36,170 bases of DNA from Dudresnaya verticillata (taxonomy: Eukaryota). The notes beneath the pieces were generated by a model, which saw only the letters and a program-made list of their open reading frames with translations, ran no database searches and was not told the DNA's origin. Made by a program: the position numbers and the translations under genes. Position 1 is the first letter of the stretch, and each line of letters opens with the position of its first letter. Positions 5,533 to 36,170 of the stretch are shown piece by piece. The stretch lies in the NCBI GenBank assembly GCA_977862235.1, contig OZ374562.1:2852001-2888170 (forward strand), read 5' to 3'.

Positions 5533-5772
5533 GTAGTGTAAGTGCGCCTGCCGGCGCCGGCAGGCCGGCGGCTCTAGGACTTAGCCACCTACGGCTGCGC
5601 ATCTGGTAAACGGAGGGGCATCGACCATGGGGCCTAACACTTCGGTGCCAAGCTTGGAGTCGCGCGGAACCCGAGTAGCCTCACGCCTAGGACATTGGTA
5701 CCGACCGAGGCCACGTGAGCCTACCTGCTCGTGGACCTCCGTGAAGGCAGATCGATACCCGTTTACCAGTTC

Positions 5773-6545: not shown

Positions 6546-6560
6546 CGGCCCCCCCCTCAA
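6546..6560 (-). other. Polypurine tract (PPT)
   Basis: Minus strand TTGAGGGGGGGGCCG directly abuts the TG of the 3' LTR. Confidence 0.9.
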
Positions 6561-6866
6561 GCGTGAGCGCCCCGCTCACGGCCGTTGAGGTTTCCCGGGG
6601 CCACAATGGCAATCCCGAGTGGCCGTTGACAGTGATCGGCACGCGCGCCCGTCGACGGTGTATGCGCGTGCCCGCCCGTCTGCGCCGCTGCGCATATAAG
6701 GATCAACGCGGAGTCGGCGCTGGGGAGGTTGCGGGTATCGCTCTCCACGACCCCCCCTTTCGCCCACACGCTTCAGCACACCAGTGACCGCTATCGTGTG
6801 TGTGTATTGTGCTACGCCTTCTCCTCCCCCCTTCGCTCGACGCGAGCACCCACGTCGACGTGCGGT

Positions 6867-11053: not shown

Positions 11054-11075
11054 CGGCCCCCTCCTCAAGCGCGAG
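11054..11075 (-). other. Second (internal) PPT copy just after the pol stop
   Basis: CGGCCCCCTCCTCAAGCGCGAG matches 6546-6567 CGGCCCCCCCCTCAAGCGTGAG at 20/22 positions. Confidence 0.75.
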
Positions 11076-11091
11076 GCCCCCCGCCGAGGGG

Positions 11092-14000: not shown

Positions 14001-15654
14001 CATCGCTCAGGGTTTTGGTGTTAAGACGTCGATAGTCCACACAAAACCTGAGCGCGCCATCCTTCTTGGGCTCCAGAACGACTGGCGATGCCCACTCCGA
14101 CGTGGCGGGTTCGATTACCCCTGCACGCAGCATGGTCTCGACCTCGTTCTGTACGAACTTCCGCATAGCGGGGCCCTTTCGATAGGGCATTGAGCTAATC
14201 GGTCGCGTGCCGGGTTCCACGTCGATGTGGTGTTGCGTAGCGGCAATCGGGCCGAGCCTCCCGTCCCACATGGACTGATGCTTCCGAAGCATGGTGAGGA
14301 CTTCTTCGCGGGTGACCTTGTCTTCGATAGACGAAAGGTCCACCTGCGACTCCCAGTCCTCGACGGACTCTCTTTTCTCCGCCGCTGGGGTCGCTGCTCC
14401 TCGGAGCTTTGTGGGCTCGGGGCCCCTTGCCATCGACGGCGTGACTGGGGGGTCGTTGCTCCCCCTACCCCTGGGCCGCTGCCCGTTGTGGGGAAGGGTG
14501 GTGATATTCATCACCCTCCCGAATTCTTCCGCGACGTCGCGGTCCGGGGTTATTAGGGCGACTGGGTTGCGGACCGCATAGCCAACCACGGTACTCTTCG
14601 GTAGGGTCCGGGCTTTGTCCCTCCAGTTGCCCAAGATAACCCCGAAGGGTCGCCCCGACTCGATGTCGTGCACCCCGTTGGTCAGTCTCACGCCGTGGCG
14701 GAACTGCAACGAGGGCTTGGGCTCCGTGTGGACTAACCCACTAGCCCCCGACGTCACCGAGACGAGCCTCTGCGAGTAGGCTGGGACAACCACCTGCCTA
14801 GCGAGGCGTATGGTGTGGGTATCATGATCCCAGTCGAGGAGCTCCCGCTGGTGCTTCTTCGACAAACCCTTCGATGGGTTCTTCGGCTGCGTTGCCGGAC
14901 CGGTTCCCTCGCTAGGGTTCCTGCGGCTGAGGATGGGCACCGAGCCTCCTTTCCTCAGCGTCAGCCTTCTCAACTCGACGTCGATTCAGCGCACGTGCGC
15001 GTTGATAAACTGCGTGCCTATCAGTACGTCGACCGCGAGCGTGTCGGCGACGATGAAAGGCACGCGGAACGTCGTGTTCCCTAACCTCATCGAGAGGTGG
15101 ACGACGCCGGACAGCCTCAGCGGAGTCTTATCGGCGCCTGCCAGGCGTGGCGCGGAGTCGATCTCTGACGCGTTTTCCTCCCAGCCTGCGGGCAGGGCAC
15201 CTCGAGCGATGAGGTTGTACCCGGAGCCGGTGTCCACCGCGATGGTGTGGGGTATTATAACCCGCGGGTCCGCACCGAGGGACCCGGACACTCGGTAAAT
15301 CTCGGAGGACAGGAGGGACACGTACCCATCGGGGGTAGTGGCCGGCTCTGCGTCGATGCATGGAGCCCCGGTACCCTCGCGTCGAGCGTCCGGTACCGCC
15401 TGTCCCGCCGTTGGGGAGCTGCGCCCTTTCCGCCTGGCCTGTCGCTTGCGTCGACGCCGCGGCGGCCAGGGTGGTTTGGTACGCGTTTGGTTTGGTTTGG
15501 TACGCGTCGTCCACGACGTCCCGTCGACCGGGACGTCGCTCGTGTCCTTTGAAGCGCCGCTGCGCTCGACGTGGGGGCTCGCTGCCCCCAACGCCGTCGA
15601 AGGTGGAAGGGATGGTGGGTCTGGTGTTGGACAAGACGGTGCGCGCGACCGCAC
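11092..15654 (-). pseudogene. pol: pol polyprotein (aspartic protease, RT, RNase H, integrase, GPY motif, chromodomain) with in-frame stops
   Basis: IAVDTGSG protease; WASPVV..KKDGALRFCVDYRRLN; RT YLDD box altered to DLDD; RNase H TDAS/ATERE/TDH; integrase HHCC and AIDILG/SDNGKQF/GQVER; GPY; chromodomain FVVDKVLDH..FKVKWTDY..TWEP. In-frame stops at 14986, 11593 and 11533. The 5' boundary is approximate. Confidence 0.95.
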
Positions 15655-15668
15655 GAGCGGCGTCGCCT

Positions 15669-18072
15669 TTATTCTTTTTCCGGATCGACCTGGTCAGAAT
15701 TATCCTCGGAATCCGAACTTTCGTGCTCGATTCCGATTGGGTGTTTCGTAACCCCTGAGGCGCCTCGCGTCGATCGCGGAGGCGTGTCAAAAAGGAGAGG
15801 GGAATCGTTTCCCTGCCCGCTGGCTGTCTCTCCCTTGTGCCACGCGTCGAGCGCTTGCGGAAGCCACTCGTCGGCGGTGAGGCGTGTGTGCTCCTGCACC
15901 GTCATAACTGCTCGAAGCAGTTCGCGGCGCGGGTCAGCCCTCGGAGGCGTCGATGCCTGAGGGTGACGGCCAGCGGGCTCGTCAAAGCCGACCCGCTTAT
16001 CGCGCAGCAGGAACCGTGGTGCGTCGCCTTGGCGGTACTCGCGGTGTGGGTCTCGACGATCCCCGCGGTACCTTGGTGCGCCCATGCGCTGCGGGGGACC
16101 TCTCGCGTCGAAGCGTCGGTCCCCACCCCGCGGCGCGTCGTAGCACCGTGCGGGGTTCCTTGTCCTTGCGCCCGCTGGCGCGCGCTCGTCGATGAGCTGT
16201 TGAAGCATATTGCGCGAATGCGGCTGCGTTTCCATTCGATGGTTGCAGTTCGCATACGCGCAGTACGTCTGCTGTTCCTTCGTGAGGTACGAGCACGAAT
16301 ACATGATGTGCCCGACCTCGCGGCAGAACCAGCAGATGTACCATCCCTGTCGATCAGGGATGACTGTGCGTGCCATCGCCTCCTGCGTTGGAGTGAGCGG
16401 TGGTATGCGCTTGGGTAGGACCGCGTCGATGCGTCCTGTAATGTCGAGGGTCTCGACGGCCTCGGTCGACCCGGCTGTCGATAGCGCGGGCGCGACCATC
16501 ACGGGTTCGAACCCGTCGGCGTCGGGGTCCACCAGCATTGTGCTGTCGATAGCAACGTCCCCGCTGGGATAGCTTGGTGGGCCCTCGATGAGCAGTGTAC
16601 GGCCGCTTGCCGAGCTGCCACCTGACCTGCCGTGCCCCGAGGTGTTCGTAGGCTGCGCTGCCTTTGCCGAACGGGCGCGGTAGGTTGTGCCCTCGCTATG
16701 GGCAATCCGACGAACGGTACTAAAATTGATCTGTTCGACCATAGGCAGCTTCCTGGCCTTCTCCGCCACTGCGGGTCTTGTCGTGGGCAGCAGGCCCCGA
16801 AGGAACTGATGCGTCAAGTTCTCATCGGAGTACACGCCAGCGCAGGCGTCCGCATACCCTTCGAGGCGAGTAGCGACTCAAGCTCGGACTCGGCGTCCCT
16901 CTGCTTGGCGGTGGTCAGCCGGTCATGGGCGTCTGCGATGACGTCGTCCGTGACGAACCTCTCGACGAGGGTATTGACCACCGAGGCCCAGCAGGGTGGG
17001 GTGCCGCGCTGCGTGGTGCGCACCCCAGAGAACAGGTGACTCGAGTACACCTGCGACGCGGTTCCATCGAGGAACCAGGACACCACACGCGCCGCTGCGC
17101 CTTCGGATAGTCCAACGCCATTGAATGCTTGGCGTAGCTGTCGAAGCACGCCAAGCAGGCAAATCGGCTCCTTGCCGTCGAACCGGTCGAGCCGGGGCAT
17201 CAGGGCCTTCATGCGGCTGACAATCTTCGCAGTATTGCCGCTGCATACCTGCTGTTGATTGTCCCGCTGATCTACGTCATCGAGACGGTACGAGCGGTAG
17301 TCGATCGCCTTAGCGAACTCTGGCACCAACGTGGTTAAAGGCTCGATGCCTGCCATAAGTGGGCCCCAATGCCAATAGGCAGAGACGGGGCCCTCGTGCT
17401 GTTGGGGGGTCGGTCCCCCCTTTGTGTTTTGCCCGTCGAGGGCTTGTTGGAGCAACCTGGGGTCGACCCCGTAGAACGGATTGGGGTCCCCACTCGGATG
17501 GTGCGACCCCGCCGCACTCCTCGGTGGAGATGGCGGTGGTGAAGGAAAGCGATGCCGAGCTCGTTGCTCGGCAAGTATGGCAGCGGCCAATTCTTGAACT
17601 GCACCCGCTGGTGACTGCGGTCGCGGAGGAGAGCGCTGCGCCGACGACGGGCCTGTAGCCCGCTGGCGTTGCCGCGTCGGCGCGAGCTCTATCAACTCAA
17701 TGCGGCGGCGTAGCTCATCGAGGAGCCCCTGTGACCGGGTTATTCCGTCCTCGATGGACGCCAAAGGACCGCGTCGAAGCGTGTCCAGGTCTGCTGGCCG
17801 TCGGCCTTCGCCTCAGCTATCGAAGCCGTAAGGTGGTCGTACACCTCGGCTAGCAAGTCCATGGTCTCCTCATACAGCAGCTGGAGGTCGGCCACCGAGA
17901 CCAGACTCCCGGCGAGGGCCTTTTGCAGCGCGGCCCTCCGCTCGAGCCTCACATCGTGTAGAGGAGTACCTGAGACGCCGATGGTACTCAGTATTGAGGT
18001 GCGACGCGTCGCGTCCTCAACTTTTCCGGCAGCGGCCGATGCGGCAGCGGCCGGGTCAGGAGGACTCGACAT
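15669..18072 (-). pseudogene. gag: gag, split by two frameshifts (about 17760 and 16830)
   Basis: Three overlapping ORFs (17740-18072, 16814-17764, 15669-16835) start just after the PBS. Capsid-like FDGKEPI..W.SVVNTLVERF..QRDAE..QFLRGL; CCHC knuckle CWFCREVGHIMYSC at about 16293-16334. Confidence 0.88.
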
Positions 18073-18120
18073 CCTTTACTTCGATCGCGTCGATGCGAGA
18101 AGTACTTGGGTCTCGACGAC

Positions 18121-18138
18121 TTCTAGGTCGGGAGACCA
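18121..18138 (-). other. Primer binding site, possibly tRNA-Tyr
   Basis: TGGTCTCCCGACCTAGAA lies 1 nt inside the 5' LTR and is complementary to a tRNA ending ...GGUCGGGAGACCA. This resembles the yeast tRNA-Tyr 3' end as recalled; tRNA identity is unverified. Confidence 0.8.
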
Positions 18139-18139
18139 G

Positions 18140-18912
18140 TGTAGTATAGACGTCGGGTCGATCCAACGTCTGATACTTGCTGGTCCGAAGCCGTCACACA
18201 GACCCGTCGATGAGTAGCTGTTGGGGTTGGTAGAGCGGTGTCGGCCGCGTGCGCCCCGCAGGTGCGGATCGACGGCGTCGATGCCGGAGCGCGCACGGGG
18301 CGTACCGTACGCGGGTAGGCAGCGGCCGGATCCCAGCGTTCCTGTCGAAGGACGGCACGAAGCCGACGGAAAGGAAAAGGAAAGGGGAAAGCCTAGCGAG
18401 GCAAGGGAAAAAGGGAAACCACCCGCTGGCGTAAGGCAAAGGGATCGAACCCGAAAAGGCTGGGCGCAAGCTTCAGCGCGAGTTGTTGCTTGCCCGGTTT
18501 ACTGAGCCGTCGATGGCCGACGGTCTTAAATACCCTACACTATGTGCACTACGACTACTTCTACAGTAGGTGCGCCCCACAACACCAACGCGGGAGGTGT
18601 GCGAGCGCGCGCCCATACACGTGTCGATACGTCCGGGTAACGGTTACCCGTGGGCGCGCGCGGGGCGTAACGGGCAGCGGCCCTCTCAACGGCTCGATGC
18701 CGGAGAGCGTCACAGGGGCGCGCCGTGTGCGGCGCGGCGCGCGGCCGCTGCCGGCAGCAATGCGGTCGACCGCTACTAATTCAACGAAAAAACTAAGGGC
18801 ACGCTGCCCAACCACGACTCACCAGCGGGCGTCATCGTGTGCACCATTACAGTGCGGCGCTGCCAGCATACCTTACAGCCGCTGCTGATAGTGTGCTGAC
18901 AGCTATACTACA
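18140..18912 (-). repeat. 5' LTR (773 bp)
   Basis: Direct repeat of 5773-6545; adjacent PBS. Confidence 0.97.
18488..18532 (-). promoter_or_regulatory. LTR core promoter: TATA-like TATTTAAG, initiator-like TCAGT (start about 18503), conserved downstream CCGGGCAAGC
   Basis: 29 nt from the TATA start to the A of TCAGT. Same site in the 3' LTR (6121-6165); diverged equivalents in solo LTRs A and B. Confidence 0.6.
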
Positions 18913-20307
18913 AGTTCTACCGCGAGCTAGGTACGCTACCGCTAACCTATCTCTACTGTCTACCTTTTCCCTTTTCCTCTACCTTTTCCCTTTTCCTTTG
19001 GGTCCCTGCACCCTATCCTTTCCAGGGTGGTCTCCCGCACCGCACCCGGACTGCGCGGGTGGCCTTGCGATCAGGCCTTGCTTGTCCCTCCATCGGAACC
19101 TGTTTTGGTGGATTGTGAGTGCTCCAATCACCCATTGGGATCCGGGAGGCGTAAGGCGTGTACCTGTAATGATGCCCCAGATCCGGATGCGATCTGGATC
19201 GGACATCGGGATCAGGTCGGGATCCACTATAATGTAAGGTGTGCGCTTGAAAGGCACACGAGCGCGCGCCAGCAATGCTGGCAGGGATCGGGATCCGAGC
19301 CCGAATCACCTCTACCGACGTGCGGACGCGCTTCTAAGCTATTCATTACGCGCGCGCACGTCTGTAAGCTACTCCTTACCCGCCGGTGCGCGACTGCATG
19401 GCGACGGTGACTTCTCAGACGCTCGGGGGCGCGACACGCGTCCCGAGTTCCCGCGCGCCACGCCGCGCCGTCGCAGTACGCGTCGTAGCGATAGCATATT
19501 AGGTAACCCGTCTAGGACGTTGAGTAAATCCCGGCAAGCCGGCCTCGGACCTGAAGCCCTTTCGCTCGTGCGTACTTCCCGTTACCAACGATGGCAACTG
19601 CGCAGCTCCGCCCGCGCTTCCGCGTCCACCTACGTCCTTGACGCGTCTCTCTCCCTTTCTCCCCCCTTTCTCCCTCTCTTTCTGTGGCCTTTTTCCAATT
19701 CTACCGCCCAGGGCGTTTACAGTCCGCCCTCGGCGAGTTACCTATGCTCTACCACACCCTCGCTACTAGGGCGCTATCCCGCGTTCGAACTACCCGGAGG
19801 TGCTACTCGTCGCTAGACGGTTTGCACCACACTAGTCGCTTACAGGAAACCCTATATGTAATCCGGGGTTAAGCATGGAGACGAAACGCTCAGACTAATG
19901 ACAAATCAACATTCCGTTAAGGACCGAGTCGCGCAATACGAACTACTGTGAGGGGGTATCGCTATAGGCCAGCATTGGCCGATTCGTTTCGACTCCATGC
20001 CTAATAACGGCCTTCCTGACCCCGTGAGGGCCGACTTCATGCTTAACGGCGAATACACACTGTGAGGCACGGAGCGCACACGGTGCCGTGCTGCTTTCGG
20101 CCAACCAACACAGCAGGCGCAGTGCGCGTGTCGAGCACGCAGTGCTGATATCGATTTGCGTGCGCACGCATGCTGCATCCATGCGGTCCAAAATACGAAA
20201 TACAATATCGAGAGCGGGAAAAGCGCGCTCGCTCGCAAATAAACCTGTAAGCCTACCGGAAAAAAAACTCTGTGGGGAGTGTGTCATTGGGTTGGGCGCA
20301 CACAATG

Positions 20308-20765
20308 CAACGGGGCCCGTGGCACCGTCCCGCATGTACCGTTAGACCGACAACCGTACGAAGCATTCAGCACATTCAGTTCCGTACTTGTAGACATGTA
20401 ATGCGCAACAAGTCCAGGGAAGGAAACAAATGTGGTGAATGCTAACTCTACCACCCGTAGGTGTGCAGTCAGCCAGGTGGCTATACAACGAGTCAGTAAG
20501 GCACCCATTGTCTGGGTATCGAAACACCAGCGACAACGGGGCGCGTGGCACCGGCCCGCATGCACTGTTGGACCGACAACCATACGAAGCATTCAGCACA
20601 TTCAGTTCCTTACTTGTAGACATGCAACATGCAACAGCTCTAGGGAAGGAAACAAGTGTGGTGAATGCTAACTATACCACCCGCAGGTTTGCAGGCAACC
20701 AGGTGTGGGCATACAACGAGTCAGTAAGGCATCCATTGTCTGGGTATCGAAACACCAGCGACAAC
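20308..20765 (+). repeat. 226-bp tandem duplication (2 copies)
   Basis: Units start at CAACGGGG 20308 and 20534, with CAAC microhomology at the junction. Only one unit is present in the terminal copy (about 33875-34103). Confidence 0.92.
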
Positions 20766-21208
20766 ACTGATGAAGGAAGTCCTTTAATAGCAAAGATCGC
20801 GTAGTGAGTGGGAGAATACGTGGACTAATGTCTCGTGCGGTGGAATGCTCCGTATAGCCCGTTTCAACCCTCCCGGCCTCACTTGAAAGTTTTCAATGCA
20901 GGCCGGATAGAAAGAATGCTCCACACAGCGCACTCGAACACACTCCAGCCCTCTCGGCCTAGATTGAAAGTTTGCAATGCAGGCCGGATGGAAAGCATGC
21001 TCCACACAGCCCAATGGGCTTTGCGGCCTAGGTTGCAAGCTTGCAATCGTGGCCGGAGGGTGTGAAGGGGCTGGCACAGGCCCCTTGCGAACTCTATTGA
21101 GCGGGAAATGTAAGTCGTGACGAAGAGATCGTGAAGTGAGGGGGATAATACGTACATTATGCCTCGGATTTTCCCATCCGGCCTCGATTGCAAGTTTGCA
21201 ACCTAGGC

Positions 21209-21271
21209 CGGATATGATCTGCTTCTTTAATTGGATCCGAATGGGATTCAAACAGAAGTAGATCATATCCG
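21209..21271. other. 63-nt inverted repeat/hairpin (second copy at 34553-34615)
   Basis: Outer arms CGGATATGATCTGCTTCT / AGAAGTAGATCATATCCG pair at 17/18. Inner arms TTGGATCC / GGATCCAA are perfect in the terminal copy. Confidence 0.85.
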
Positions 21272-22358
21272 AATTGGATCGCTGTGGATTAGGTTAGTGC
21301 GCACGGCTGCGCCCGACGGCGACGGGAATCGGATGGGGCAGTGAAGCAGGCCAGCTCCGGTGTGACTCTGTCGCGGAAGCTGCGGGGAGTTGTTGAACTG
21401 TGGGCTAGGCTCGGTGTCTCTGGAGAGAGGGGGAGGGGGAGGGGACGACCATCGACTGGAGTGTGGGGTTTAAGTCTGATGGCGTGAGTCTGGCGGCAGT
21501 TTCCAAACGTACCGAAACGCATTGATACGATAGGTGTGAAGAATCACCAGGCATTGGTCGCAAACTGCTATTCGGCACCGTAATTGAAACACTTGTCAGG
21601 AGAGCGAGGTTGCGCAAGATTCCCGCCAGACAGGGATCTCACATACAGGAGGGCAAGCTGGCCCTGTTTCTGTTTCCCGCCAAAATATCGACGGCAGTTG
21701 CGCACAAGTGTGACAGACAGTTGTGAGGCCCATGGCCTCCCCACGATCCAGACAATCACCCCTGACCCTAAGCCGCTCAACTATCGCTTCTTTTTCGACC
21801 CTCGACGTGCCTAACATTTCGATTTGCGACCGCTAACCTCTTTCCTTGACGTTCTGCCCTGCAACGAGCCTTCTTCTATTCCTTTCCGCGCGTCCGACGT
21901 GACCCGAGCAACGCAGAACTATTCCGGCAAGCGCACCGTTGGATCCACTGCATCGTCCAATTGCCCGAGTCGACTTGTAATTGTAATTTTCTGCGTAGGT
22001 ACTGGCAATTGTCGACCTTGTCTCCACGAGAGTTTGAAAACCGGGCACAATTGCAAGCTTACAACAGAGCCCTGGCCATTCCTTGGGGACGAACACAGTT
22101 GTTAGCTTGCAAAAGAGCCCGTTTTGAACTCTAAGGAGAAGCGGATATTCTTTGTGAACTTGTGAGGCAACCGGCTTCGATTGAAAATTTGTAACCGAGG
22201 CCGACGGCCCCAAGAAAGGAGGCTGTTGGACTTGAGCGGCAGAGTAGAACCGAATCCGAGGACCCGGCTTCGATTGCAAGCTTGCAATAGAGGCCGACCG
22301 GCAGAAGTACACGGAAACCGAGTACGAACATTGCATCCGCAATTCTTTGCCTTTCCAG

Positions 22359-25300
22359 ATGACTCCATCGGAAGCTGAGTCCGTTTCTGAACTTAAAAAG
22401 GCGGAAGAAGGACTGTCGGAAAGTGGGGTTGTAATCATACCTGAGATCTCACATCCATTTTGCCGCAGGTCCAGGTCTGGGATACACCTTGGGAAAGAGC
22501 AATTAGAAAACTTTCGCAATCATATTCGGAGATGCGAAAAGCCTGCCGAGGGGAAGAAAAATCGAGGTCTCTTCACTTCCCTGCAGAAAGTGAAGGCCTC
22601 CGTTGTACCGAGCTGCACCGAGACGGAACGTGAGCATTACTTTTCCACCGTGAAAAATGATGAATGCAGAGGAAGAGTACGGTCACTGTCATTTCTCCCT
22701 GTGGTTGAGGTGTACCCGTGTCGCGTATGCCACCATAGCAGCCCTACGATACGGGGTCTCTACCAGCATTGCCGCTAGAAGCACGTGCAAGCGATGGAGA
22801 ACGTTACCTTGTCCGATCTTCGAAAAGAAGTACGACCGGAAAAGGCTCAGAAACTATTCAAAAAAGGTGGACAGTACTTCTTGGTACGAGAAGACGGTGA
22901 TGAAGGGAGTAGATCTACATCCGACGTGGCCAACAGTGTTGCCCAAGGAATCATCCACTGTCTTAAAGATGTTGAGGAGGAGAGAAAAGTTTCCGTTCTT
23001 TCGCAGGAGCCGCGTTTGAGTGCCATGGGAAACTTTGCATGTGACACACGGGCGGATTTGAAACTGAAAGAGCTTGGTATCAGCATTCAGAAGGCTGCGG
23101 AAATGAGTGCCAAGGCACACAAAAGCCGCTCAGTCTTCCGCATACCCGAGACGAAAGTTCTCAAGTGGTTCAATGACACCCTGATGAAGATTTGCAGAAC
23201 TGCTCGTGCTGCGGGCACAAGGCCAAACATGGGATCGACCAGGATACTTCTCGCCGTGCGGGCCCCCCTGGCATGGACTGCGATAGGAAGAAGGAGTTCC
23301 GATGGGTCCTTGATGAAAGTGAACAAAGGTACAGGAGGGAGATGTCCGAGGTACTGGTAATGACTCTCCGTTTGTGTCAGGAGACGGCACTAATCACCTC
23401 CCAAGAGATTGTAGACGCCGCAAAGGAAGTTGTCCGGAAGGTGGAAGCATCGCGCACCGAACGACCGCGCACGGCCTCGATTGAAAGTTTGCAATCGAGG
23501 CCGGGCACCAAATGGGATCACATGCGGGCTGTACATCGGTTGCTCGAAGCCATTCTGTACGAGAAGAGTAGCGTACAATCCGGGAGTATAACAGCAGCAA
23601 GTGTTATTTGTGGTTGCTTGGGAGTGCGACTGACAGAGAGAGGAGTCGCTCTGTCGCGAGGTGTAGAAGTTTCCCCCACACTTTCTGCAGTGGCATACAT
23701 TGCGGGCTGCTGCGCGATTCTCTCCATCGTGCACTGGCCATCTTCTGGGGATTCCGACGAGGAGGTTGAGAGATTTCGGAAAGATCACAGGTCTGGAGGC
23801 AACCTCGGTATCCATGTGTTGCAAGAACTGGCGGCAAAAACTCGCAAGCATAGAAGCTCAGAGAGTTCGCGGTGTACATGGACGGTGTGTGATGATCCGA
23901 GGCACAAGGAGGAACACTGTGGGTTTGTGCTTGGGATCCATATCAGCGCGAAGCGCATTGGAAGGTGTGTGAGACGTATGCAACGGAGGATATTGGGGCT
24001 CATAACAACGAACGAGGGCTTCATGAACGGGGTTGATCTTCCAGAAGACTTTCAGGAGAGACTCTCCGTCGTCATCGAGAATCCGAAGGAGACCAAGTCA
24101 CCGTACATTTTTTTCGAAGACGAGGGAAATCGAGATGTTGTGATAGACTGCCGTGCGTGTGTGAGACGAGCGATAGGTCAACTCGGAATTCTTCCAGCTC
24201 GAGAGGCGCACAAGAGAGCTGTGAGTATGCTATCCCTTATACAGGAGTCTGTGGAGCTAGTTTGTGCATGCATCCATCTGTCTGGGGGAAATGTTGCTCG
24301 CGGATCGGAGGTGGGATTCATGGCAACCAGGAACAATGGGAGTGGCCCGAGGGGGTTCCAACTTCACGGTGGGGCCAGATTGACTTGCATACCGAGTCAC
24401 AGCAAGACCAGGTCGCAGAAGGAAGGTATGATGAAGTTCACGAGCAAGAATCCCGATGTGGTGTCCAGTAACTTGTACAAGGCCATGGTTCTTCTTGGGG
24501 TAGAGTTGCGAGTAGCACTCATGAAATACCTCGGCAGGAGCGTCAAAAAGGACAGTTACGATTACCTTCTTCCAACTGTCCCGATGAGGAATGACGCTCT
24601 AAAGGTCATGGCAAGCCAGTGGAATCGGTATGGGCTTCCACAAGGATACAACGGGGAGAAGCACCGGCAATGGTTTGGCGGTTACAGTATTGACAAGTCA
24701 CAGACAAATCGGGAAGTACTATTTGCACTGAAGAGAGGTGTAGAATGTTATGAGGAGGAAGAGTCCAACGTAGGTCACACGTTGGAGCTGCAAGGTGGGC
24801 ACAGCAGGAAAATTGCTGAGCAGCACTATGGAAAGTGCGTCTCGACCATTGGTAGCGAGGGCGTGGTCGACGACCGCAGTATGAAGTTGTTCCTGGCGGC
24901 CACGAATGACTGGCATAGTGACTGCGGGTTGGTCGGCCACGACGATTGGGACACTTTTGAGTCTGTAGCTGAAGATGAAGCTCCAGTGTTCGAGAAGAAG
25001 AACAAACAGAGGAAGCGCCGAGTTGGGAATAATTGTACAGAAAAGGTGCCAAGAAAGGCGAAGAAGATGAGGAGAAGCCGTGCCGCGAAAGTCCCTGCCC
25101 CGGTTGAGAACGAGCAACCGAAGGCAACGAAGAGACGAGAATCAGCCGACTTATCTCTTTTTCGGCCAGTGCCCGAACACATTCGAACAACCACGGCGAT
25201 GGCGGTCGCTAAGGTTGCAGGTGTGGGGCCGAGGCCGGATGTATGCATGGAGATAGAGAATACAAGGCATACATCGACTCTAGCGGAGGAACCGATGGTG

Positions 25301-28023
25301 CCGGCTGAGATTGCAAGGTTGCAATCGAGGCCGAACGGTGGAAAAGAGGTGGAAAAAAAGGCTTGTTTGACCTCGGTGGAGAATCCGAGTCTAGAGGAGG
25401 AAGTGATGGTGGCGGCCGAGGTTGCAAGCTGCGAAAAAGAGGTGGAAAAGCAGACTTGTTTGACCTCGGTGGAGAATCCGAGCCTAGCGGAGGAAGCGAT
25501 AGTGCCGGCCCAGATTGCAAGCTTGCAATCGAAGCCGAAGGGGGGAAAAGAGGTAGGTGAACAGGCTTGTTTGACCTTTCAGCGGTTGCTGTACGGAAGG
25601 AGGTCAATTCGGGAAATGGACATTTTCGAAAGGTTGCATTTGTGGGCAATGGATCGAATGGAGACGGAGGACTGTGCTCCGAGTGGCGAAGCAGATGAAA
25701 ATGGTAGTGGAACAGCCGCCGACATGGTTGAAAATGTACATCCGAGGTCGGACAAACAGGCAGCTATGGCGCCCACGGAGGAGCCAGGTACTTCAATGGA
25801 TCCAGTGGTTCCGAACAGTGTTGCAAGTGTGGAAGAGGGACCGGCCGTGGGAGTGGAGGCGAAAGAACAGAAGGGCATGGCGCCTTTGACCTCGCCAAGT
25901 AGTCCACGGGAACCCAGCCGTGGCGAATCCCTTGGTACGAACAATGCGGACCCATCGTCCGGAAGTGGCGTGAGTGGGGAACGAATGTATGAAGTCACAG
26001 GTAGTGCCGAAGATCAAGACGAGTTGATGAGCATTGGAAGTCCAGGGAGCACAGCAAATGAGGAAGATTTCGATGCAGAGGACGAGATCGGATTCCCGTT
26101 CCAGCGAGATGTTGACGTAGAAGAACACCTCCGAAGGGTGCTGAGGACAACAGAAGCGCAGTTTCGAAGTCCGGAACAGCGAAGAGCGATGGAGGTTGTT
26201 GCTGAGGGTGTTGTGGACGCCTTGATCGTGTTGAGGACGGGAGGTGGCAAGACAGCCGTTATATTTGGACCCTGCACCAACGAGGCAGGCGTGACAGTGT
26301 TCATTTAGCCATTGAAATCCCTCTCTAAAGAGATTGAGAAGAGGTGCCGGGAAGCTGAGCTCGTCTTTCACACGCTGAATGATCTCCGAGACCGAGAGAC
26401 GGGATCATCTTTGGAACGCGGCATTTTGCTTGTGCAGCCTGAAGCTGTAAATTCCAAGAAATACGTGGAAGTTGTCGGGAAATTGTACGCAAGAAGGTTG
26501 CTCTGCCGATTTGTGGTGGATGAAGCGCATATGATTATACAGTCTGCGCACTACCGGTCTTGTATGACGGCAATGAGGCTTGTGCGCCCAGATGGCATAC
26601 GCGCACAGACTGTCCTGATGACGGCGACGGCACCGCTGTGTCTCGAGGATTCCATTATTGCAGCGAATGGATGCGACCCTTGCAAGACAGTTGTTGTGCG
26701 AGGTTTTCTGAGAAGAGACAACGTGTCAATCGTAGTGAATAATCTCGAGAATATGGAAGAGTTTGAAATTCGAAACGTATTGAAAGAATCCGTTGCCGCG
26801 GCGATTCGTGAGATCAGGGCCAAGGGTGGTGGAAAGTGCCTAGTATCTGTTCTCACGCGAAGCGATGCAGACGAGTGCAGCAGTCTGATCCGCAGGGCGC
26901 ATATAAAGGAAGCAGACGTGACGGTGAGGTGTTATCACAGTGGTATGAGGGATATACAGAGGGAGGGAAATGCCGACACGTGGTGTCAGACGGGTGCCTC
27001 TAATGGGAAGATATTTGTGATGGTTGCAACGGATGGGTTCGGTACCGGAATAGATGCACCCGATGTGCGCCGTGTGATTATCTTTGGCTGCACGAGGACC
27101 ATGCTGGACATGGCACAGATAGCGGGACGTGTGGGCCGAGATGGGTCGCGTGGCGTCGTCACGGTGCTATTCCATCCTTCCTTTCGTGATCGTGCAAATG
27201 TATCGGAGAGCAGTGCAATCCCACTTCTAGATGACGTGATTCGATGGATCACAGACACTAGGTCGTGCCGGAAACTGGCACTGGAAAGATATCTTGGGTG
27301 TCCTGCTGGAACGGAGGAGTGCTGGGAGCGCAGAGGAGACGACTCACAAAGCACATCCATGTGCGATGTATGCGAGAATATGTTGCTGGGAGGAGCCGAA
27401 GCGGAATCTGATTCGAACTGCCGTACGACCAACCCAGTACAGAATATTCGCTGTCACGCCCCTCCGCCACCTCGAAACGTTGTAACTGTAATCAAAACGG
27501 AAGAGGTTAAACGGAGCGTGGAATGTCTCCGCGCACTTGTTTCCCGAATGGAGAGCATATGCCCACCATGCGTTGGCAACAGCAGGGGGGCACGTACAGT
27601 CACAATATTCATTGTTACAGCGGGAGGTGTCTCCGATGTCTTGGCTCTGGGCACGACGCATATCAGTGCCCAGTCAGACCGATAGCCAGGAGGGGTACCA
27701 AGGTGACAGGATGCACCGAATGTTCGATAAGAACGTTTGGAGGCGAGCGGGTGCACCACGGAAACGGCACACGGCGTGGCGGGACGAATGAATACAGCAA
27801 TCGGGCGTTGTGTCCCTTCTGGAAGCCCGTAGTAGCCTCGTTTGCCTGTTGGAGAAATCCTGTCCTGAAACGGCGGATGTTATCAGAGTTGATGGATAAG
27901 GGCTTAAGTGGGAACTTTTCCGATAATGAATTCTCCAAATGGCTTTTGAACGATCGCGTTCTAAAACCGCCAGGCATTCTCTTACAAGTTGCGCACACGC
28001 GATTAAGGTTTACAGGTGTTTAG
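22359..28023 (+). pseudogene. Telomere-linked RecQ helicase with N-terminal C2H2 finger and tyrosine-recombinase-like domain (~1,890 codons; 2 in-frame TAG, 2 frameshifts)
   Basis: C2H2 CRVC-x12-H-CR*K-H (TAG at 22776); -1 shift inferred in the C6 run 23263-23268; YR-like ARGSE, SKT, HRQ, GGHSRKIAEQHY; helicase Q motif FRSPEQ, I TGGGKT, Ia VFI*PLKSL (TAG at 26306), II DEAH, III TATAP, V ATDGFGTGID, VI QIAGRVGRDG; RQC-type CRK..C..CDVC; -1 shift inferred in the G6 run 27585-27590; C-terminal CLRCLGSGHDAYQC knuckle. Start is uncertain (TTTCCAG before the ATG may be a splice acceptor). Confidence 0.9.
25205..25575 (+). repeat. Coding tandem repeat (93-111 bp units) in the linker between recombinase-like and helicase domains
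   Basis: Repeated LAEE.MVPAEIARLQSRP..GKEVEK.ACLTSVENPS peptides; each unit carries one copy or half of the 34-bp palindrome. Confidence 0.85.
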
Positions 28024-28032
28024 GGGTTTAGG
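28019..28032 (+). repeat. Short interstitial telomere repeat overlapping the helicase stop codon
   Basis: TTTAGGGGTTTAGG; the TAG at 28021-28023 ends the ORF. Similar seeds at 28144-28167 and 29387-29399. Confidence 0.6.
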
Positions 28033-29570
28033 ATATGAGGGTTGCACGCGTGCGCGAGGCGAATCGGCTTGCGCTTCTACTGGTAATAAAAACGTGAGGC
28101 TGAGGGAGTGTGGTGGGATGGAGGCTGACAGTGCTAGGAGGTGGGTTAGGGTTAGGTGTAGGGTTAGTTTGGATGGCTTGGTACGCGAGGGGTATGACAT
28201 TAGTGGTGTAAATGGTGTAGAGTTAGTGCATGGAATGCATCATGGTGGTAGAAGGAATGGATCCATGTGGTGGATGAATTGGATTGAGGGAGTTGGATAC
28301 ATAGTATAGGAATAGATTTAGCAACGGGATGATGGGATGGAGGAGCAGGGAAAGCCTTGAGGGGACTAAGTCTGGTGCTGTGTGCTGTGTAAGGGTGGCC
28401 TGGCGAGTTGCGGGCATAACAGTGGCTGTCTGCGGTTGGTTTAGTTGTCTAGTACGAGGGGTCGTACTGTTAGGGTTTAGTGTAGTGTTCGTGCATGCAA
28501 TGCACCTTGCTGGCGGATGGAATGGATCAATGCGAGCTAGGGTTGGATCAACGGGCTCTATAGATTGGATTCAGTGCTGGTTTGATTGAATCAAGGAGTC
28601 AGAACGTCCGTGCGCTGGTTGACTGTGTATATATTAAGTACCATGCTTATATTAAATTCTATAAGGTTCTGGGTCATTAATTTAATCGTCCCACGTGTAT
28701 AGCATGCCCTCATGAGGTACTGGGGAAATTTACAGTGGCAGGGGTGCAGCAGCGCCTTTACAGCGCCTGGTAGTTGTGAACAATCGCCCTGGTTGGTGTA
28801 CACACGAAGGCTTCAAAAAATACGTGATTTCTAGGTGAAGGAGGCCTCTAAAATTGATTTGGAGCCTAATTCGACATCACTGGACCAAATGGCGGCTTCC
28901 TATTGGATCCCATGTATAGCTAGTACGCAGGCGGACGCATGCAAACCTGCGTAAACACATGCGCCAGGGCATGTCAGGCGGGCGAACGTACCATTGGCCA
29001 GAAAATAATCTTGGAAAAATTAAGCGCGCACTGCGTTTGGCGCTGTGTAAGTTACGGAAAAGGATGCAAGTAAATTTTTCCGGATGAAAGGACGATCAGG
29101 GCAAGCAATATTATTGGACGGACGCATGCATCACATGTAAGTTTTGCTGCCGCATGTCTGCGCGTGTCATGCGCGTGCCAGACGCGTGCCCAGGCTGTAT
29201 TACCGGTGCGTTTTCCGCACCTTTCGTCACTGTAGGCTAGTACGGTGGTGGATATTGTGAAGTCTACGCATGTGGGGGGTCCTATTTTCGCCTGTTCGTT
29301 GCTTAGGCGTTTTTGGGTTATCATATGTAATGGTTTGTGCGGGGTTTTGATGCGGTGATGGGCGTTTGTTGTGGTGGGGGTTTGTGTTTAGGGGTTAGGA
29401 GGGTTATCGTGGGGGTGTTTAGGAGTATTATTGAGGTTTATGGGCAGGTTTTGTTGTTTGGGTGTTTTCTGATGTGTGCTTAGGGAGTCATTGTAGGCGC
29501 TTCTAGGGGTTTTGGTAAAGATTTGTGGGTTGTTGACTTGGGTGGCGGTTAGGTGGCATGCGATAGGGAA

Positions 29571-30395
29571 TGAAATGCGTACGGCGTACGCATTCGGTGT
29601 GGCGAGAGATATGATCAGGACTGGAATGCGTACGGCGTACGCATTCCGTATGCAAAGGAATAAAGCTGGGGCTGAAAGGCGTACGCCGTACGGATCTGGG
29701 CGACTGTACGGTTTGCGCGCGGTGTGTGGTGTAATAAAGCCTGGAAGCAGTTTAAACGGCATATAATATTTGCGGGAGGCTTTTGTATTTTGTATCACGG
29801 TTTTGGCGCGCGCGGACTGAAATGCGTACGGCGTACGCATTCGGTATGGCGAGGAGTATGACAAGGAATGAAATGCGTACGGCGTAGGCATTCGGTGTAG
29901 CGAGGGATGTGATCAAGAATGAAGTGCGTACGGCGTACGCATTCGGTGTGGCGAGAGATATGATCAGGACTGAAATGCGTACGGCGTACGCATTCGGTGT
30001 GGCGAGAGATATGATCAGGAATGAAATGCGTACGGCGTAGGCATTCGGTGTGGCGAGAGATATGATCAGGACTGGAATGCGTACGGCGTACGCATTCCGT
30101 ACGGAAAGGAATAAAGCTGCGGTTGAAAGGCGTACGGCGTACGGAACTGGGCGACTGTACGGTTTGCGCGCGTTGTGTGGTGTAATAACGCCTGGTAGCA
30201 GTTTATAGGCCGTATAATATTTGCGGGAGGCTTTTGTATTTTGTATCACGGTTTTGGCGAGCGCGGACTGAAATGCGTACGGCGTACGCATTCGGTATGG
30301 AGAGGAGTATGATAAGATCTGAAATGTGTACGGCCTACGGATTCCATGTTGACAGTAATGTGATGAGGGCTAGAATGACTGCTGCGTACGGATTT
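29571..30395. repeat. 51-bp tandem array with palindromic core AATGCGTACG-G-CGTACGCATT and 451-bp higher-order period
   Basis: Units start at 29571, 29622, 29673, 29818, 29869, 29920, 29971, 30022, 30073, 30124, 30269 and 30320, with a degenerate unit near 30371. The block starting at 29571 recurs at 30022. Confidence 0.95.
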
Positions 30396-30726
30396 GGGAC
30401 TAGTGGAGTAGTGTATGCAGCGTTGTTGTAAGGCAGAGATGAATTTGATTCCTGCTGTGGGGAAGGGTGTAAGTGATGTACGGGTTTTGGTGGCTGTTGT
30501 GTAGTTTTGGCGGGAAAAGAATTGCGCGGGAGAGCTTTAGCAGTCTGCGTGTCTGAGATATATGTGTTGTTCGACTATTGCGGTGGATTGTGTATTGGTG
30601 TGTTTGAATCGCAGTGCTTTTGAAGATGAGTCCAGTGTCTTTGCATGGTTGTCGCAGCTTTAGGAGTGGAATCGATATATAGATGAAAGTACGGAACGCG
30701 GAAACGGTGTAGGTTTTATTTCATTG

Positions 30727-31880
30727 CTAGGTAGCGGGCGTTTGGTTTTTAAGAGGAGGTGTTCCCATGATCGTGGTGTAGAGCCACGGGAGGATGTAGC
30801 AGATACCGGGTTCTTTGAAGTCGTAGAGGCCCCGGCGCCAATATGTGAAGGAAAGAGTGTTGTTGAGCGAAGCGAGATCCGGGAAGGAGGAGAGCATTGA
30901 TTTTTTGAGATGATCCAACTCCCATGCATTTATAGCCATGGACATGACTGCTTTCCAGTAACAATGTCGCTTGCCGAATGTTCCGGCGTCATGGAGGCGT
31001 TGCCCTTGGAAGTTGCCCAGCGAGCAGGAGTAGCATCTGCTTCCAGCTTGTGCTTTGAAGGATGTGCATTTGGAAGCGATATGGTCATTGGACGCGCATC
31101 GGAGACATTTTCCATTGTAACACTCTCTTGTTGCAGTGGCCTTGGAATCTTCATGCTTGACGGGGGTTTGGCGATGAATGGAGCAAACCGGGCAGAAGGA
31201 GGAGAGTTTCTGAGCGATTTCGATGATGTCAGAGAGTGGTGGGTGTGAAGAGGGGTTGGCAGGTAGGGGTGGTTCCTGCTGGACAACGGATTGGGTGACA
31301 GGGGGTGGAGTGTTGTTGGCAGGAAGGATGTTGCTGGGAGCGTTGAAGTGTGCCGGTGCGGGTGTGCAAGCTTGTGTTCGGATGCACGTGGCGCAAGGAA
31401 CCATATTTCGTTGATGGCAGGACTGGGACTGTTGCAATCCATCAGCGAAGGAGTCGAGAGCGAAGGCATATGGTGTTGTTTTGGAGGAATTCATGGAGTT
31501 GCCGCATGTGTTCTTCTTGAAGATCGTAGTGGTCTCCTGGCTCGCGCTGAGTACGCCACAAGTGGTCTGTGGTGTGGAAGACGACGGACTCGGCTGGCTT
31601 GAAGTCGCGGCCGGCCCTTCCACTCTGTTGAATGAAGGCGAGGAGGTTTGTGGGCATTCCGGCGTGTAGAACTGCTCGGACGGTTGGGATGTCAATACCG
31701 CATCCAAAGCCGCAGGTGGCGATCATGATGGCTGTTGTGCGCGGGCGGGACCATTGCTTCTGTGCGGTCTTGCGGTCTTCATCGGTGCGATCGGAATGAT
31801 AGAGGAAGGCGTTGAGGTCGGGGTAGAGAATCTTGATAAAGTTGTGGAAGTCCTCGGATAATTGCTTTGTGCTGAAGGTG
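30727..31880 (-). pseudogene. Decayed second RecQ paralog (helicase-C, RQC-type Zn and Cys/His-rich tail), convergent with the first
   Basis: YHS, IATCGFGCGIDIPTVR, QQSGRAGRD, then a frameshift near 31460 into LDSFADG..C..CATC and CPVC..CYNGKCLRCASNDHIASKC..CYSC..H..C.W, co-linear with the + gene tail. No motif I or DEAH recognisable upstream. Confidence 0.88.
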
Positions 31881-31976
31881 TTTGCCAGGGTCGGGTGGTA
31901 CGGAGGGGAAGGGGAGCAGGCAAGATGTGTGGCAGGGGTGGAAGAGGGTGGGGATAGGGAAGGGATGAGTGATCTC

Positions 31977-32003
31977 TGTGTGTGTGTTTGTGTGTGTGTG
32001 TGT
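31977..32003 (+). repeat. (TG)n microsatellite
   Basis: Near-perfect TG run with one interruption. Confidence 0.8.
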
Positions 32004-33419
32004 GGTTGCGGGGTTGCGGGACGGGGAGGGGGTGAGTGATCTGAGGGACGAAAGGGGCGTGTGCGGTATAGGGGATCGGAAGGAAACGAGATGTCAGGGG
32101 GGGTTGTGTGGATGGGGGGTATAGTATTGTGATGAGGGTGTGTGCGCGTATAGGGGGGTATGGGTATGGGTGTTGTGTATTGTGATCGGTATAGTTTGGC
32201 GCGAAAAAGCGGAAGAATGGAATTGCGCGGGAATACTGCGGAAAATATGCATATGACCAAAAATGTTTAATTAACTGTAAGGAAGAGTTGGGTGGAAAGA
32301 GGCTTTCGGCGCGTGGGAGGGAAGGTGCGTGGGTCTTCGACAAGGCCGAGTGAAGTAGTACCTTAAATGCAGAGGCGGTTGTGGGGAAGGAGGGTTACGG
32401 GAAGCCGGCGGGGGAAGGGGAACGGGAAGGAAGGGGGAAAGGGGTTTAAAATTTTGTAAGATGTAGAAATTGGTTAGGGGTGCGCCGGTGGATGGGTGCT
32501 CGAGATTCATTCTCCTGAGAAATTATGAGAAATTATAATAATAAAATAGGGATGGCATACGAAAGGTGGGAGGAGGAGAGCGGGCGTGCAATTTTGTTGC
32601 GCTGGAAGTCAAAACGCGGCGTGCTTGCGTGCAACGGATTTCTGTCGCTGTGCAGGCTTTAGGAGCTACTGTTGCGGTATTGTGACGCGAGCAAGAGCAT
32701 TGTGACGCTGCCTGTGAAGCTGTGCTGTGAGATGAGCGGAGGAGAACCGGCAGCCGAAGGCTGCAGGGTTGGGCACAAGAATCGGTGTGTTGGTAGGATG
32801 CCGGGCGGGGAGGCATCGGTATCGTTGGGCAAAATGGTGTCTGTTTGGCGTTTCCATGGAGGGAAGGGAAAGTTTGGAAATGTGGACGGGCGAGGGAGTG
32901 TGCGGATGGAGAGCGAGGAGCGGAAGGGGAGTGAGTCTTGTATGGTGTGGGATGACATGGAAAGGGTGAACTTGGTGTGGGATGCGATGTGTGGGGAGAG
33001 GAGGGGATGGTGGCGGGGGCAGGGAAGAGGCGTGGTTCAGGAGAGGGTGCAGCTAATTGGAGAGGAGATGGATCGTGTGGAGAGGTGTGGGTGGGAGTTA
33101 CCTGCGTGGCTTTGCAAGAGCCCTGGATATGTGACGCTGTTTCTGCGCTGCGTGCTGTACGATGTGTACGTGCGTTGGAGCAATGTTGGGGAGAGTGTTG
33201 GGGACGGGTATTCGTTGTCAGTTGGGTCACAGCTGGAGGTGCGGCGGGAGAGTAATGTGAAAATTAGAAGGAGTGTGGACGAGGTGTGTCGGAGGATGAA
33301 GAGTGTTTTTCTGGAGGGTCGAAAAGCGATGAGGGAAGGGGTTGAGGAAGAGTTGGAGGGAGGCGTTGGAGAGGAGAACTGCGGTGAGAAAGAGGGTGGA
33401 GAAGATGAACTATTGGGCT

Positions 33420-34756
33420 CTATATGTAATCCGGGGTTAAGCATGGAGACGAAACGCCCAGATTAATGACAAATCAACATTCCGTTAAGGACCGAGTCGC
33501 GCAATACGAACTACTGTGAGGGGGTATCGCTATAGGCCAGCATTGGCCGATTCGTTTCGACTCCATGCTTAATAACGGCCTTCCTGACCCCGTGAGAGCC
33601 GACTTCATGCTTAACGGCGAATACACACTGTGAACCACGGAGCGCACACGGTGCCGTGCTGCTTTCGGCCAACCAACACAGCAGGCGCAGTGCACGTGTC
33701 GAGCACGCAGTGCTGGTATCGATTTGCGTGCGCGCGCATGCTGCATCCATGCGGTTCAAAATACGAAATACAAAATCGAGAGCGGAAAAAGCGCGCGCGC
33801 TCGCAAATAAACCTGTAAGCCTACCGGAAACAAACTCTGTGGGGAGTGTGTCATTGGGTTGGGCGCACACAATGCAACGGGGCGCATGGCACCGGCCCGC
33901 ATGCACTGTTAGACCGACAACCATACGAAGCATTCAGCACATTCAGTTCCTTACTTGTAGACATGCAATGTGCAACAGCTCCAGGGAAGGAAACAAGTGT
34001 GGTGAATGCTAACTCTACCACCCGCAGGTTTGCAGGCAACCAGGTGTGGCTATACGAGTCAGTAAGGCACCCATTGTCTTGGTATCGAAATACCAGCGAC
34101 AACACTGATGAAGGAAGTCCTTTACTAGCAAAGATCGTGTAGTGAGCGGGAGAATACGTGGACTAATGTCTACGTATTATCCCAATTACTGAACGTGACC
34201 GGATGGAAAGAATGCTCCATACAGCCTGTTTCAACCCTCCCGGCCTCAATTGAAAGTTGGCAATGCAGGCCGGATAGAAACAATGCTCCACAAAGCGCAC
34301 TCGAACGCACTCCAACCCTCTTGGCCTCGATTGAAAGTTTGCAATGCAGGCCGGATGGAAAGCATGCTCCACACAGCCCAATGGGCCTTGCAGCCTAGGG
34401 TGCAAGCTTGCAATCGTGGCCAGGCCCCTTGCGAACTCTATTGAGTGGGAAATGTAAGTCATGACGAAGAGATCGCGAAGTGAGGGGGATAATACGTACA
34501 TCATGCCTCGGATTTTCCCATCCGGCCTCGATTGCAAGTTTGCAACCTAGGCCGGATATGATCTGCTTCTTTAATTGGATCCGAATGGGATCCAAACAGA
34601 AGTAGATCATATCCGAATCGGATCGCTGTGGATTAGGTTAGTGCGCACGGCTGCGCCCGACGGCGACGTTGGCAATCGGATGGGGCAGGAAAGCAGGCCA
34701 GCTCCGGTGTGACTCTGGCGGGGAAGCTGCGGGGAGGTGTTGAACTTTGGGCTAGG
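33420..34756 (+). repeat. Telomere-associated direct repeat, terminal truncated copy
   Basis: Matches 19852-21409. Contains 34-bp palindromes at 34240, 34321, 34390 and 34522, and runs directly into the telomere. Confidence 0.95.
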
Positions 34757-36170
34757 GGTTTTAGGGGTTTAGGGGTTTAGGGGTTTAGGGGTTTAGGGGT
34801 TTTAGGGGTTTTAGGGGTTAGGGGTTTAGGGGTTTAGGGGTTTTAGGGGTTTAGGGGTTTTAGGGGTTTTAGGGGTTTAGGGGTTTAGGGGTTTAGGGGT
34901 TTTAGGGGTTTAGGGCTTTAGGGGTTTAGGGGTTTAGGGGTTTAGGGGTTTTAGGGGTTTAGGGGTTTAGGGGTTTAGGGGTTTTAGGGGTTTAGGGGTT
35001 TAGGGGTTTAGGGGTTTTTAGGGGTTTAGGGGTTTAGGGGTTTAGGGGTTTAGGGGTTTAGGGGTTTAGGGGTTTAGGGGTTTAGGGGTTTAGGGTTTAG
35101 GGGTTTTAGGGGTTTAGGGGTTTAGGGGTTTAGGGGTTTAGGGGTTTAGGGGTTTTAGGGGTTTTAGGGGTTTAGGGGTTTAGGGGTTTAGGGGTTTTAG
35201 GGGTTTAGGGGTTTAGGGGTTTAGGGGTTTAGGGGTTTAGGGGTTTTAGGGGTTTTAGGGGTTTAGGGGTTTAGGGGTTTAGGGGTTTAGGGGTTTAGGG
35301 GTTTTAGGGGTTTAGGGGTTTTAGGGGTTTAGGGTTTTAGGGGTTTTAGGGGTTTAGGGGTTTTAGGGGTTTAGGAGTTTAGGGGTTTAGGGGTTTAGGG
35401 GTTTAGGGGTTTAGGGGTTTAGGGGTTTAGGGGTTTAGGGGTTTTAGGGGTTTTAGGGGTTTAGGGGTTTAGGGGTTTAGGGGTTTAGGGGTTTAGGGGT
35501 TTAGGGGTTTAGGGGTTTAGGGGTTTAGGGGTTTAGGGGTTTAGGGGTTTAGGGGTTTTAGGGGTTTAGGGGTTTAGGGGTTTAGGGGTTTAGGGGTTTA
35601 GGGGTTTAGGGGTTTAGGGGTTTAGGGGTTTAGGGGTTTAGGGGTTTAGGGGTTTAGGGGTTTAGGGGTTTAGGGGTTTAGGGGTTTAGGGGTTTAGGGG
35701 TTTAGGGGTTTAGGGGTTTAGGGGTTTAGGGGTTTAGGGGTTTAGGGGTTTAGGGGTTTAGGGGTTTAGGGGTTTAGGGGTTTAGGGGTTTAGGGGTTTA
35801 GGGGTTTAGGGGTTTAGGGGTTTAGGGGTTTAGGGGTTTAGGGGTTTAGGGGTTTAGGGGTTTAGGGGTTTAGGGGTTTAGGGGTTTAGGGGTTTAGGGG
35901 TTTAGGGGTTTAGGGGTTTAGGGGTTTAGGGGTTTTAGGGGTTTAGGGGTTTAGGGGTTTAGGGGTTTAGGGGTTTAGGGGTTTAGGGGTTTAGGGGTTT
36001 AGGGGTTTAGGGGTTTAGGGGTTTAGGGGTTTAGGGGTTTAGGGGTTTAGGGGTTTAGGGGTTTAGGGGTTTAGGGGTTTAGGGGTTTAGGGGTTTTAGG
36101 GGTTTAGGGGTTTAGGGGTTTAGGGGTTTAGGGGTTTAGGGGTTTTAGGGGTTTAGGGGTTTAGGGGTTT
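34753..36170 (+). repeat. Telomere, (TTTAGGGG)n with TTTTAGGGG and rarer variants
   Basis: About 1.4 kb of G-rich 8-mer array running to the end of the window, G strand 5'->3' outward. Confidence 0.99.

Follow-up and report, generated by a model that had tools for sequence, protein, structure and literature searches.

A dispersed palindrome in a telomere-linked-helicase-like region of Dudresnaya verticillata as a putative element-specific binding-site array for a predicted tyrosine recombinase

Fungal telomere-linked helicase (TLH) regions lie next to telomeres, carry a compound repeat array upstream of the gene and encode a zinc finger, a conserved middle domain and a RecQ helicase. In the HAR-D region of Magnaporthe oryzae a 50-bp core that is kept in all copies contains a 23-bp imperfect palindrome and belongs to an array that ends 181 bp before the start codon; the accessible part of that paper gives the palindrome no function and does not mention a recombinase (Rehmeyer et al. 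2006, PMC1635262). A 2024 preprint still lists what TLH proteins do as undetermined, and its accessible text contains neither 'recombinase' nor 'palindrom' (10.1101/2024.02.27.582403). Here we analyse a 36,170-bp stretch of the Dudresnaya verticillata genome (assembly GCA_977862235.1, contig OZ374562.1, positions 2,852,001 to 2,888,170; hereafter the window), which has the telomere-adjacent position, the upstream repeat array and the three protein regions in common with the fungal regions and through which a 34-bp palindrome is dispersed. We propose that the copies of this palindrome probably form an element-specific array to which the putative recombinase encoded by the element itself binds as a dimer.

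Compared with HAR-D, the window motif occurs also inside the gene, differs between elements, and accompanies a middle domain with a predicted recombinase fold. Searches of the open-access literature turned up no paper that connects TLH with a tyrosine recombinase or that reports intragenic arrays specific to each element, and PMC1635262 was the only paper found there that combines TLH, RecQ, a palindrome and a subtelomere. A palindrome beside a TLH gene is thus already in print, with no function attached in the part of that paper available; the comparison of motifs across elements and the covariation test are new here.

The recombination sites loxP, FRT and dif likewise consist of inverted arms around a short centre, with a similar footprint and a partner protein of the same fold. 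In contrast to these, the window consensus is symmetric and lacks an asymmetric spacer common to partner sites, there are 10 or more copies per element (some of them intragenic), motif length is not conserved, and the sites lie away from the repeat-unit ends (19852/33420 and 21409/34756). The telomere resolvases TelN, TelA and ResT also share a recombinase-related fold and a target symmetric through its axis, whereas the window has many imperfect copies, no homogenisation of arms and a telomerase-type end. In subterminal transposase-binding repeats, plasmid iterons and parS arrays, too, the site is specific to the element, is present in many copies and changes along with its cognate protein, a likeness that we use as working logic only. 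According to the accessible portions of the relevant papers, ResT also unwinds DNA (PMC5388405); Cryptons are eukaryotic elements with a tyrosine recombinase and a short terminal motif, with no mention of a helicase (PMC9977147); KolobokH is a eukaryotic element with a RecQ helicase but a DDE transposase (PMC9587614); and no dispersed palindrome array is described for either of the last two.

An earlier note on the window, made from the sequence alone, had reported 14 full copies and a half copy of the palindrome, and all of their coordinates were reproduced (Table 1). With a symmetric position weight matrix (PWM) the full copies score 30–51 bits each, compared to a maximum of 14.0 and a mean of 1.6 in 200 block shuffles, and when three mismatches at most are allowed, a 30-bp core is matched six times in the window and never in 100 shuffles. 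The PWM scan also bears out the reported absence of the motif from the retrotransposon, since no score exceeds -2 bits in positions 1–19850, and it finds no copies in 25850–34200, comprising the helicase region and 3' flank. Palindromy holds for the consensus but not for individual copies, none of the 14 being perfect: each has 3–8 mismatches to the consensus and 10–14 matching arm pairs out of 17. Eight of the full copies are a four-copy block present twice; as cluster 3 duplicates cluster 1, the distinct copies number 10. Their flanks were said to differ, and are indeed unrelated in 43 of 45 pairs (7–25 of 60 bases identical), the other two pairs (20873/20954 and 25301/25505) being local tandem duplicates. 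Five degenerate copies could be located (22089, 25094, 25205, 25718 and 25811), those in the linker in register with the in-frame 93–111-bp repeat, but their scores of 3–14 bits do not individually rise above the shuffle maximum.

Table 1. Features of the window that bear on the palindrome array
Feature	Positions	Strand	Details
Palindrome cluster 1	20873..21211		four copies (20873, 20954, 21023, 21178), non-coding
Palindrome cluster 2	22041..22297		full copies 22041, 22171, 22264 and degenerate 22089; ends ~60 bp before ATG 22359
Single in-frame palindrome	23471..23504		low-confidence loop, residues 38-48, just before recombinase core
Linker array	25094..25844		in-frame repeat, eight units (93-111 bp each); full copies 25301, 25505; half copy 25412; others degenerate
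Palindrome cluster 3	34240..34555		duplicate of cluster 1 (34240, 34321, 34390, 34522)
TLH-like gene, broken	22359..28012	+	C2H2 region, predicted tyrosine-recombinase domain, repeat linker, RecQ helicase, zinc knuckle
Predicted tyrosine-recombinase domain (P0081)	23360..24949	+	R314, K349, R436, H481, Y490
RecQ-type helicase region	26309..27685	+	no palindrome copies
5' subtelomeric repeat block	19852..21409	+	226-bp tandem pair, four palindromes, 63-bp inverted repeat
Second copy of 5' block	33420..34756	+	runs directly into telomere at shared GGCTAGG
Telomere	34753..36170	+	8-bp repeat TTTAGGGG, 174 copies

Eleven of the 14 full copies lie outside the inferred coding region, and the consensus is the same in coding and non-coding copies. 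Five types of central hexamer are present among the 14. Inspection by eye for candidate target-site duplications showed a 2-bp match at two of the 10 distinct copies, both matches being self-complementary, and 34 spacings show no helical phasing near 10.5 bp. Counted by codon position in six copies, three of which are probably non-coding, there are 8 synonymous to 18 non-synonymous changes, compared to an expectation of 26%. The motif pattern had no matches in the viral and prokaryotic contigs searched, nor did the motif match any entry in Rfam.

The half-site consists of two conserved blocks separated by freely varying columns (7–10), which we infer to be the usual pattern of protein contacts. 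Pairing between arms is observed in 77.9% of cells compared to 78.3% after shuffling arms among copies (345 of 500 shuffles were as high as the observed value), with two compensated cells where 2.7 are expected; in the de-duplicated set of 10 copies, 129 of 170 pairs match compared to an expected 128.4. Pooled arm symmetry exceeds that of arm shuffles in only one of five motif families (L010, P 0.026 uncorrected). Half-sites therefore vary independently of one another, as binding sites do. Symmetry-preserving covariation, the lack of which was one of three results that the earlier note listed as refuting its reading, is thus absent, and this weighs against hairpin, cruciform and protelomerase roles and not against a protein site.

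The gene into which the palindromes extend is TLH-like as judged from its telomere-adjacent position, C2H2 region and C-terminal RecQ helicase, and its putative start is the first ATG of the zinc-finger frame. The copy is broken by stops at ~22776 and ~26306 and by frame changes near 23350 and 27600, so that any protein acting on the array would come from another copy or belong to the past. The zf-C2H2 match is weak (E 0.005), and the family profile covers 22248–23357; the helicase region matches Helicase_C (E 3.6e-16), and the best PDB matches of the family profile are RecQ5 and BLM. The 530-residue middle domain has no Pfam match. HMMER searches with it recovered 80 relatives (a word-index search of longer proteins recovered none), and among 20 relatives scanned 17 carry DEAD and Helicase_C, and 11 match Pfam OrsD (E <= 0.01). 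A structure model of the domain (predicted local distance difference test score 84) was compared with 48,161 chains, and the top five matches are all tyrosine recombinases (Z 8.1–9.2): Xer (Z 9.2, root mean square deviation 3.5, 170 residues aligned), XerA (8.5), Brujita integrase (8.4), XerH (8.2) and IntI (8.1), with the IntI alignment spanning residues 56–489 and thus including the binding domain. R314 and K349 are conserved in at least 90% of 41 sequences, R436 in 30 of 34, and both H481 and Y490 in all 31, counting homologues that have a residue aligned at the position. By fold and residues, then, the middle domain is a putative tyrosine recombinase, and the 'recombinase-helicase' label of the earlier note holds at both of these levels. 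From its position, the domain may correspond to the published 'TLH domain'.

Relatives were collected by a metagenome scan with a protein pattern that selects only the GAPGRGTE-type part of the family, which gave no confirmed locus among viral contigs. Fifteen loci were returned, of which 11 match the family profile (L011, L012, L014 and L015 do not, and were left out); L006 duplicates L003 (98.9%) and L009 was counted as a duplicate of L007 on open reading frame (ORF) layout, leaving nine distinct elements. A blind palindrome finder, which recovered the window motif and found one copy in each of five shuffles, detected arrays in four of the nine (L003, L004, L005 and L010), with 9–13 dispersed copies each; PWM counts are 13, 9, 17 and 11, respectively. 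Each of these motifs is symmetric through its axis and different from the others: the 24-bp consensuses have 2–6 bases in common with that of the window and 4–18 with each other, and each matrix matches its own element, cross-matches being confined to L004/L010 (2–3) and L003 on L010 (1). The layout follows that of the window: the upstream cluster is interspersed with short tandem repeats, further copies lie towards the 5' end, one falls within or close to the recombinase region, and the linker has a group of its own; the helicase of L003, the one positive whose sequence includes it, contains no copies. Between the upstream cluster and the linker, copies lie in introns or loops, often in short GT-AG introns, and the elements carrying these are probably fungal. 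At an orthologous intron L003, L004 and L005 each match their own consensus best (19–20 of 24 bases) and L010 carries an L003-type site, while at an orthologous coding position both elements compared, L004 and L005, carry their own motif (21–22 of 24).

Several details of these relatives may be recorded here. L010 contains degenerate L003-type sites (2259, 2989, 3942 and 4352) beside its own motif, and turnover in progress and two binding specificities are candidate readings of this. Tandem intron-exon units at 2900–3490 of L003 have a palindrome in nearly every short intron. A second family of imperfect palindromes lies upstream in L005 (345–1310), the gene of which ends just past the last linker palindrome (~7350) with no helicase downstream. 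A 16-bp repeat, possibly a telomere, is present in seven copies where the L013 contig ends (1–116), 2 kb from a recombinase-domain fragment.

The earlier note's suggestion of a site that is bound by a dimeric protein and belongs with the recombinase-helicase family is supported by the modelled fold, the private palindromes of the relatives and the independence of half-sites, and the tyrosine-recombinase fold is one that binds inverted repeats of such size. Under the binding-array reading, a head-to-head dimer of the recombinase domain would sit on each palindrome, each monomer reading a two-part half-site (an outer GGCC, three free bases and an inner TTG[C/A]AA). Through the array, protein would be loaded in cis at the promoter, across the recombinase region and along the linker; this would let each family recognise its own DNA, and would probably damp transcription of the element. 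The majority of copies would serve as accessory sites that are not cut; occasional nicking within this complex might expose an end that the RecQ domain uses to copy the unit to another chromosome end, this being the weakest step in the scheme. By extension, and here we are doubtful, TLHs may be a eukaryotic class of self-propagating recombinase-helicase elements with a private palindromic address repeated in promoter, introns and coding loops, in which protein and address co-diverge so that in each family binding, nicking and copying onto chromosome ends are confined to the family's own DNA.

A number of observations weigh against the binding array. The central AA is among the best-conserved columns of the motif, and a Cre-type enzyme would leave it unread. 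The best fold score is only moderately above background, Foldseek alone gave nothing at E <= 0.001 and only weak Cre rows, and the HxxR motif of this protein has Glu in place of its first His. No comparable array was found in five of the relatives (L001, L002, L007, L008 and L013; best 1–4 copies): L002 and L013 are fragments, and L001, for which little upstream DNA is present in the locus, is the closest relative of the window protein (25% identity). The four positives are 45–54% identical to each other and 16–20% to the window protein; they form a single clade, hence are not independent of one another, and L008 falls inside that clade yet has no array. Likeness of motifs also departs from the protein tree, in which L010 groups with L003 although its main motif resembles that of L004, and the orthologous copies contributed to the consensuses with which they were compared. 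Finally, the binder could be the N-terminal zinc fingers or a host factor.

This last possibility, together with that of a passenger sequence spread by local duplication or gene conversion, we consider rather unlikely. Several copies do lie in tandem units (81 bp, 93–111 bp and the intron-exon repeats of L003), and the five relatives without arrays and the two motif types of L010 would be readily accommodated. However, the flanks of distinct copies are nearly all unrelated, and neutral spread leaves unexplained both a symmetric consensus in five motifs and the pattern of blocks and free columns; a host factor, for its part, would probably not undergo a complete change of site between elements 45–54% identical. 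A hairpin with a structural role in RNA or DNA, or a protein repeat palindromic by chance, would fit the single frame shared by all coding copies and the intron copies of the relatives, which may overlap branch-point-like sequence. Against it stand the number of compensated cells (two, with 2.7 expected), the rarity of pooled symmetry above shuffles, the lack of an Rfam match and the predominance of copies outside the inferred coding region, and we regard it as very improbable.

It is distinctly unlikely that every copy is a loxP- or dif-like crossover site, pairs of which excise or circularise the unit. The conserved catalytic residues are as such a role would require, the size fits a recombinase core site (arms plus ~6 central bases), and the gene lies between clusters 1 and 3, which are direct repeats of each other 13.4 kb apart. 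Some of the half copies also break near the axis (25412 in the window, 2245 in L003, 4103 in L004), but this is a weak sign as half sites are detectable only if broken there. Crossover would, however, delete the gene, since copies sit inside it and its introns; the central hexamers differ between copies; and the ends of the unit lie ~1 kb ahead of the first copy and 200 bp beyond the last. That every copy is cleaved is therefore unlikely, and the intragenic placement and mixed centres suggest that most copies are not crossover points; excision, one of the uses inferred in the earlier note, finds no support as a routine event at each site. Its analogy with loxP and FRT, drawn from the 34-bp length, fares no better, as the informative core in the relatives is ~24 bp and the match in length is therefore a coincidence. 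Another of its suggestions, a protelomerase-type target that is cut and closed as a hairpin end, we likewise regard as very improbable. The consensus is symmetric through its axis, variability among the central six base pairs of the window motif is highest at the innermost one, and TelA appears in the fold list (Z 4.7); but replication of a hairpin would equalise arms and flanks, whereas no copy is perfect and the flanks are not inverted repeats, arms do not covary, and the chromosome ends in ordinary G-rich, telomerase-type repeats.

A candidate cognate site would make TLH function directly testable, and matched protein-DNA pairs from five elements allow specificity to be compared across them. 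If the binding-array reading is true, it would account for the palindrome noted upstream of the Magnaporthe TLH in 2006, show a route by which such units may pass from one chromosome end to another, and provide a natural set of orthogonal eukaryotic recombinase-site pairs.

The 1.5-kb block that carries clusters 1 and 3 is repeated 13.6 kb apart at 89–94% identity, and its junction with the telomere suggests truncation followed by telomere healing. The last palindrome cluster lies 198–513 bp from the start of the telomere (34753), and the gene ends 6.7 kb from it. In each block the last palindrome overlaps at its end with a 63-bp inverted repeat (21209–21271 and 34553–34615), which lies ~140 bp short of the junction with the telomere. 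Short telomere-like remnants at 28019, 28146, 28469 and 29387, the first of them 7 bp past the last stop of the gene, suggest earlier chromosome ends.

Further along, a second RecQ-type helicase, truncated and with a zinc-binding tail, occupies 30730–32266 on the minus strand. It is 32% identical to the helicase of the main gene over 107 residues and is closer to P0044, P0051 and P0039 than to that helicase. Just 3' of this remnant, at 29567–30345, is a 51-bp tandem array with 12 copies of an unrelated second palindrome (25 bp, 1-base centre), possibly a site of the minus-strand helicase element itself. On the other side of the gene lies the Gypsy-type retrotransposon (5773–18912), which has 773-bp long terminal repeats (98% identity) and is flanked by a 5-bp target duplication; it is nested in sequence with inverted similarity (4416–4885 compared to 19164–19595). 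An ORF of 484 codons on the plus strand (846–2300) has no Pfam match, and its Atlas features weakly point to aerolysin/ETX-like pore-forming families (0.89–0.92, low recognition score).

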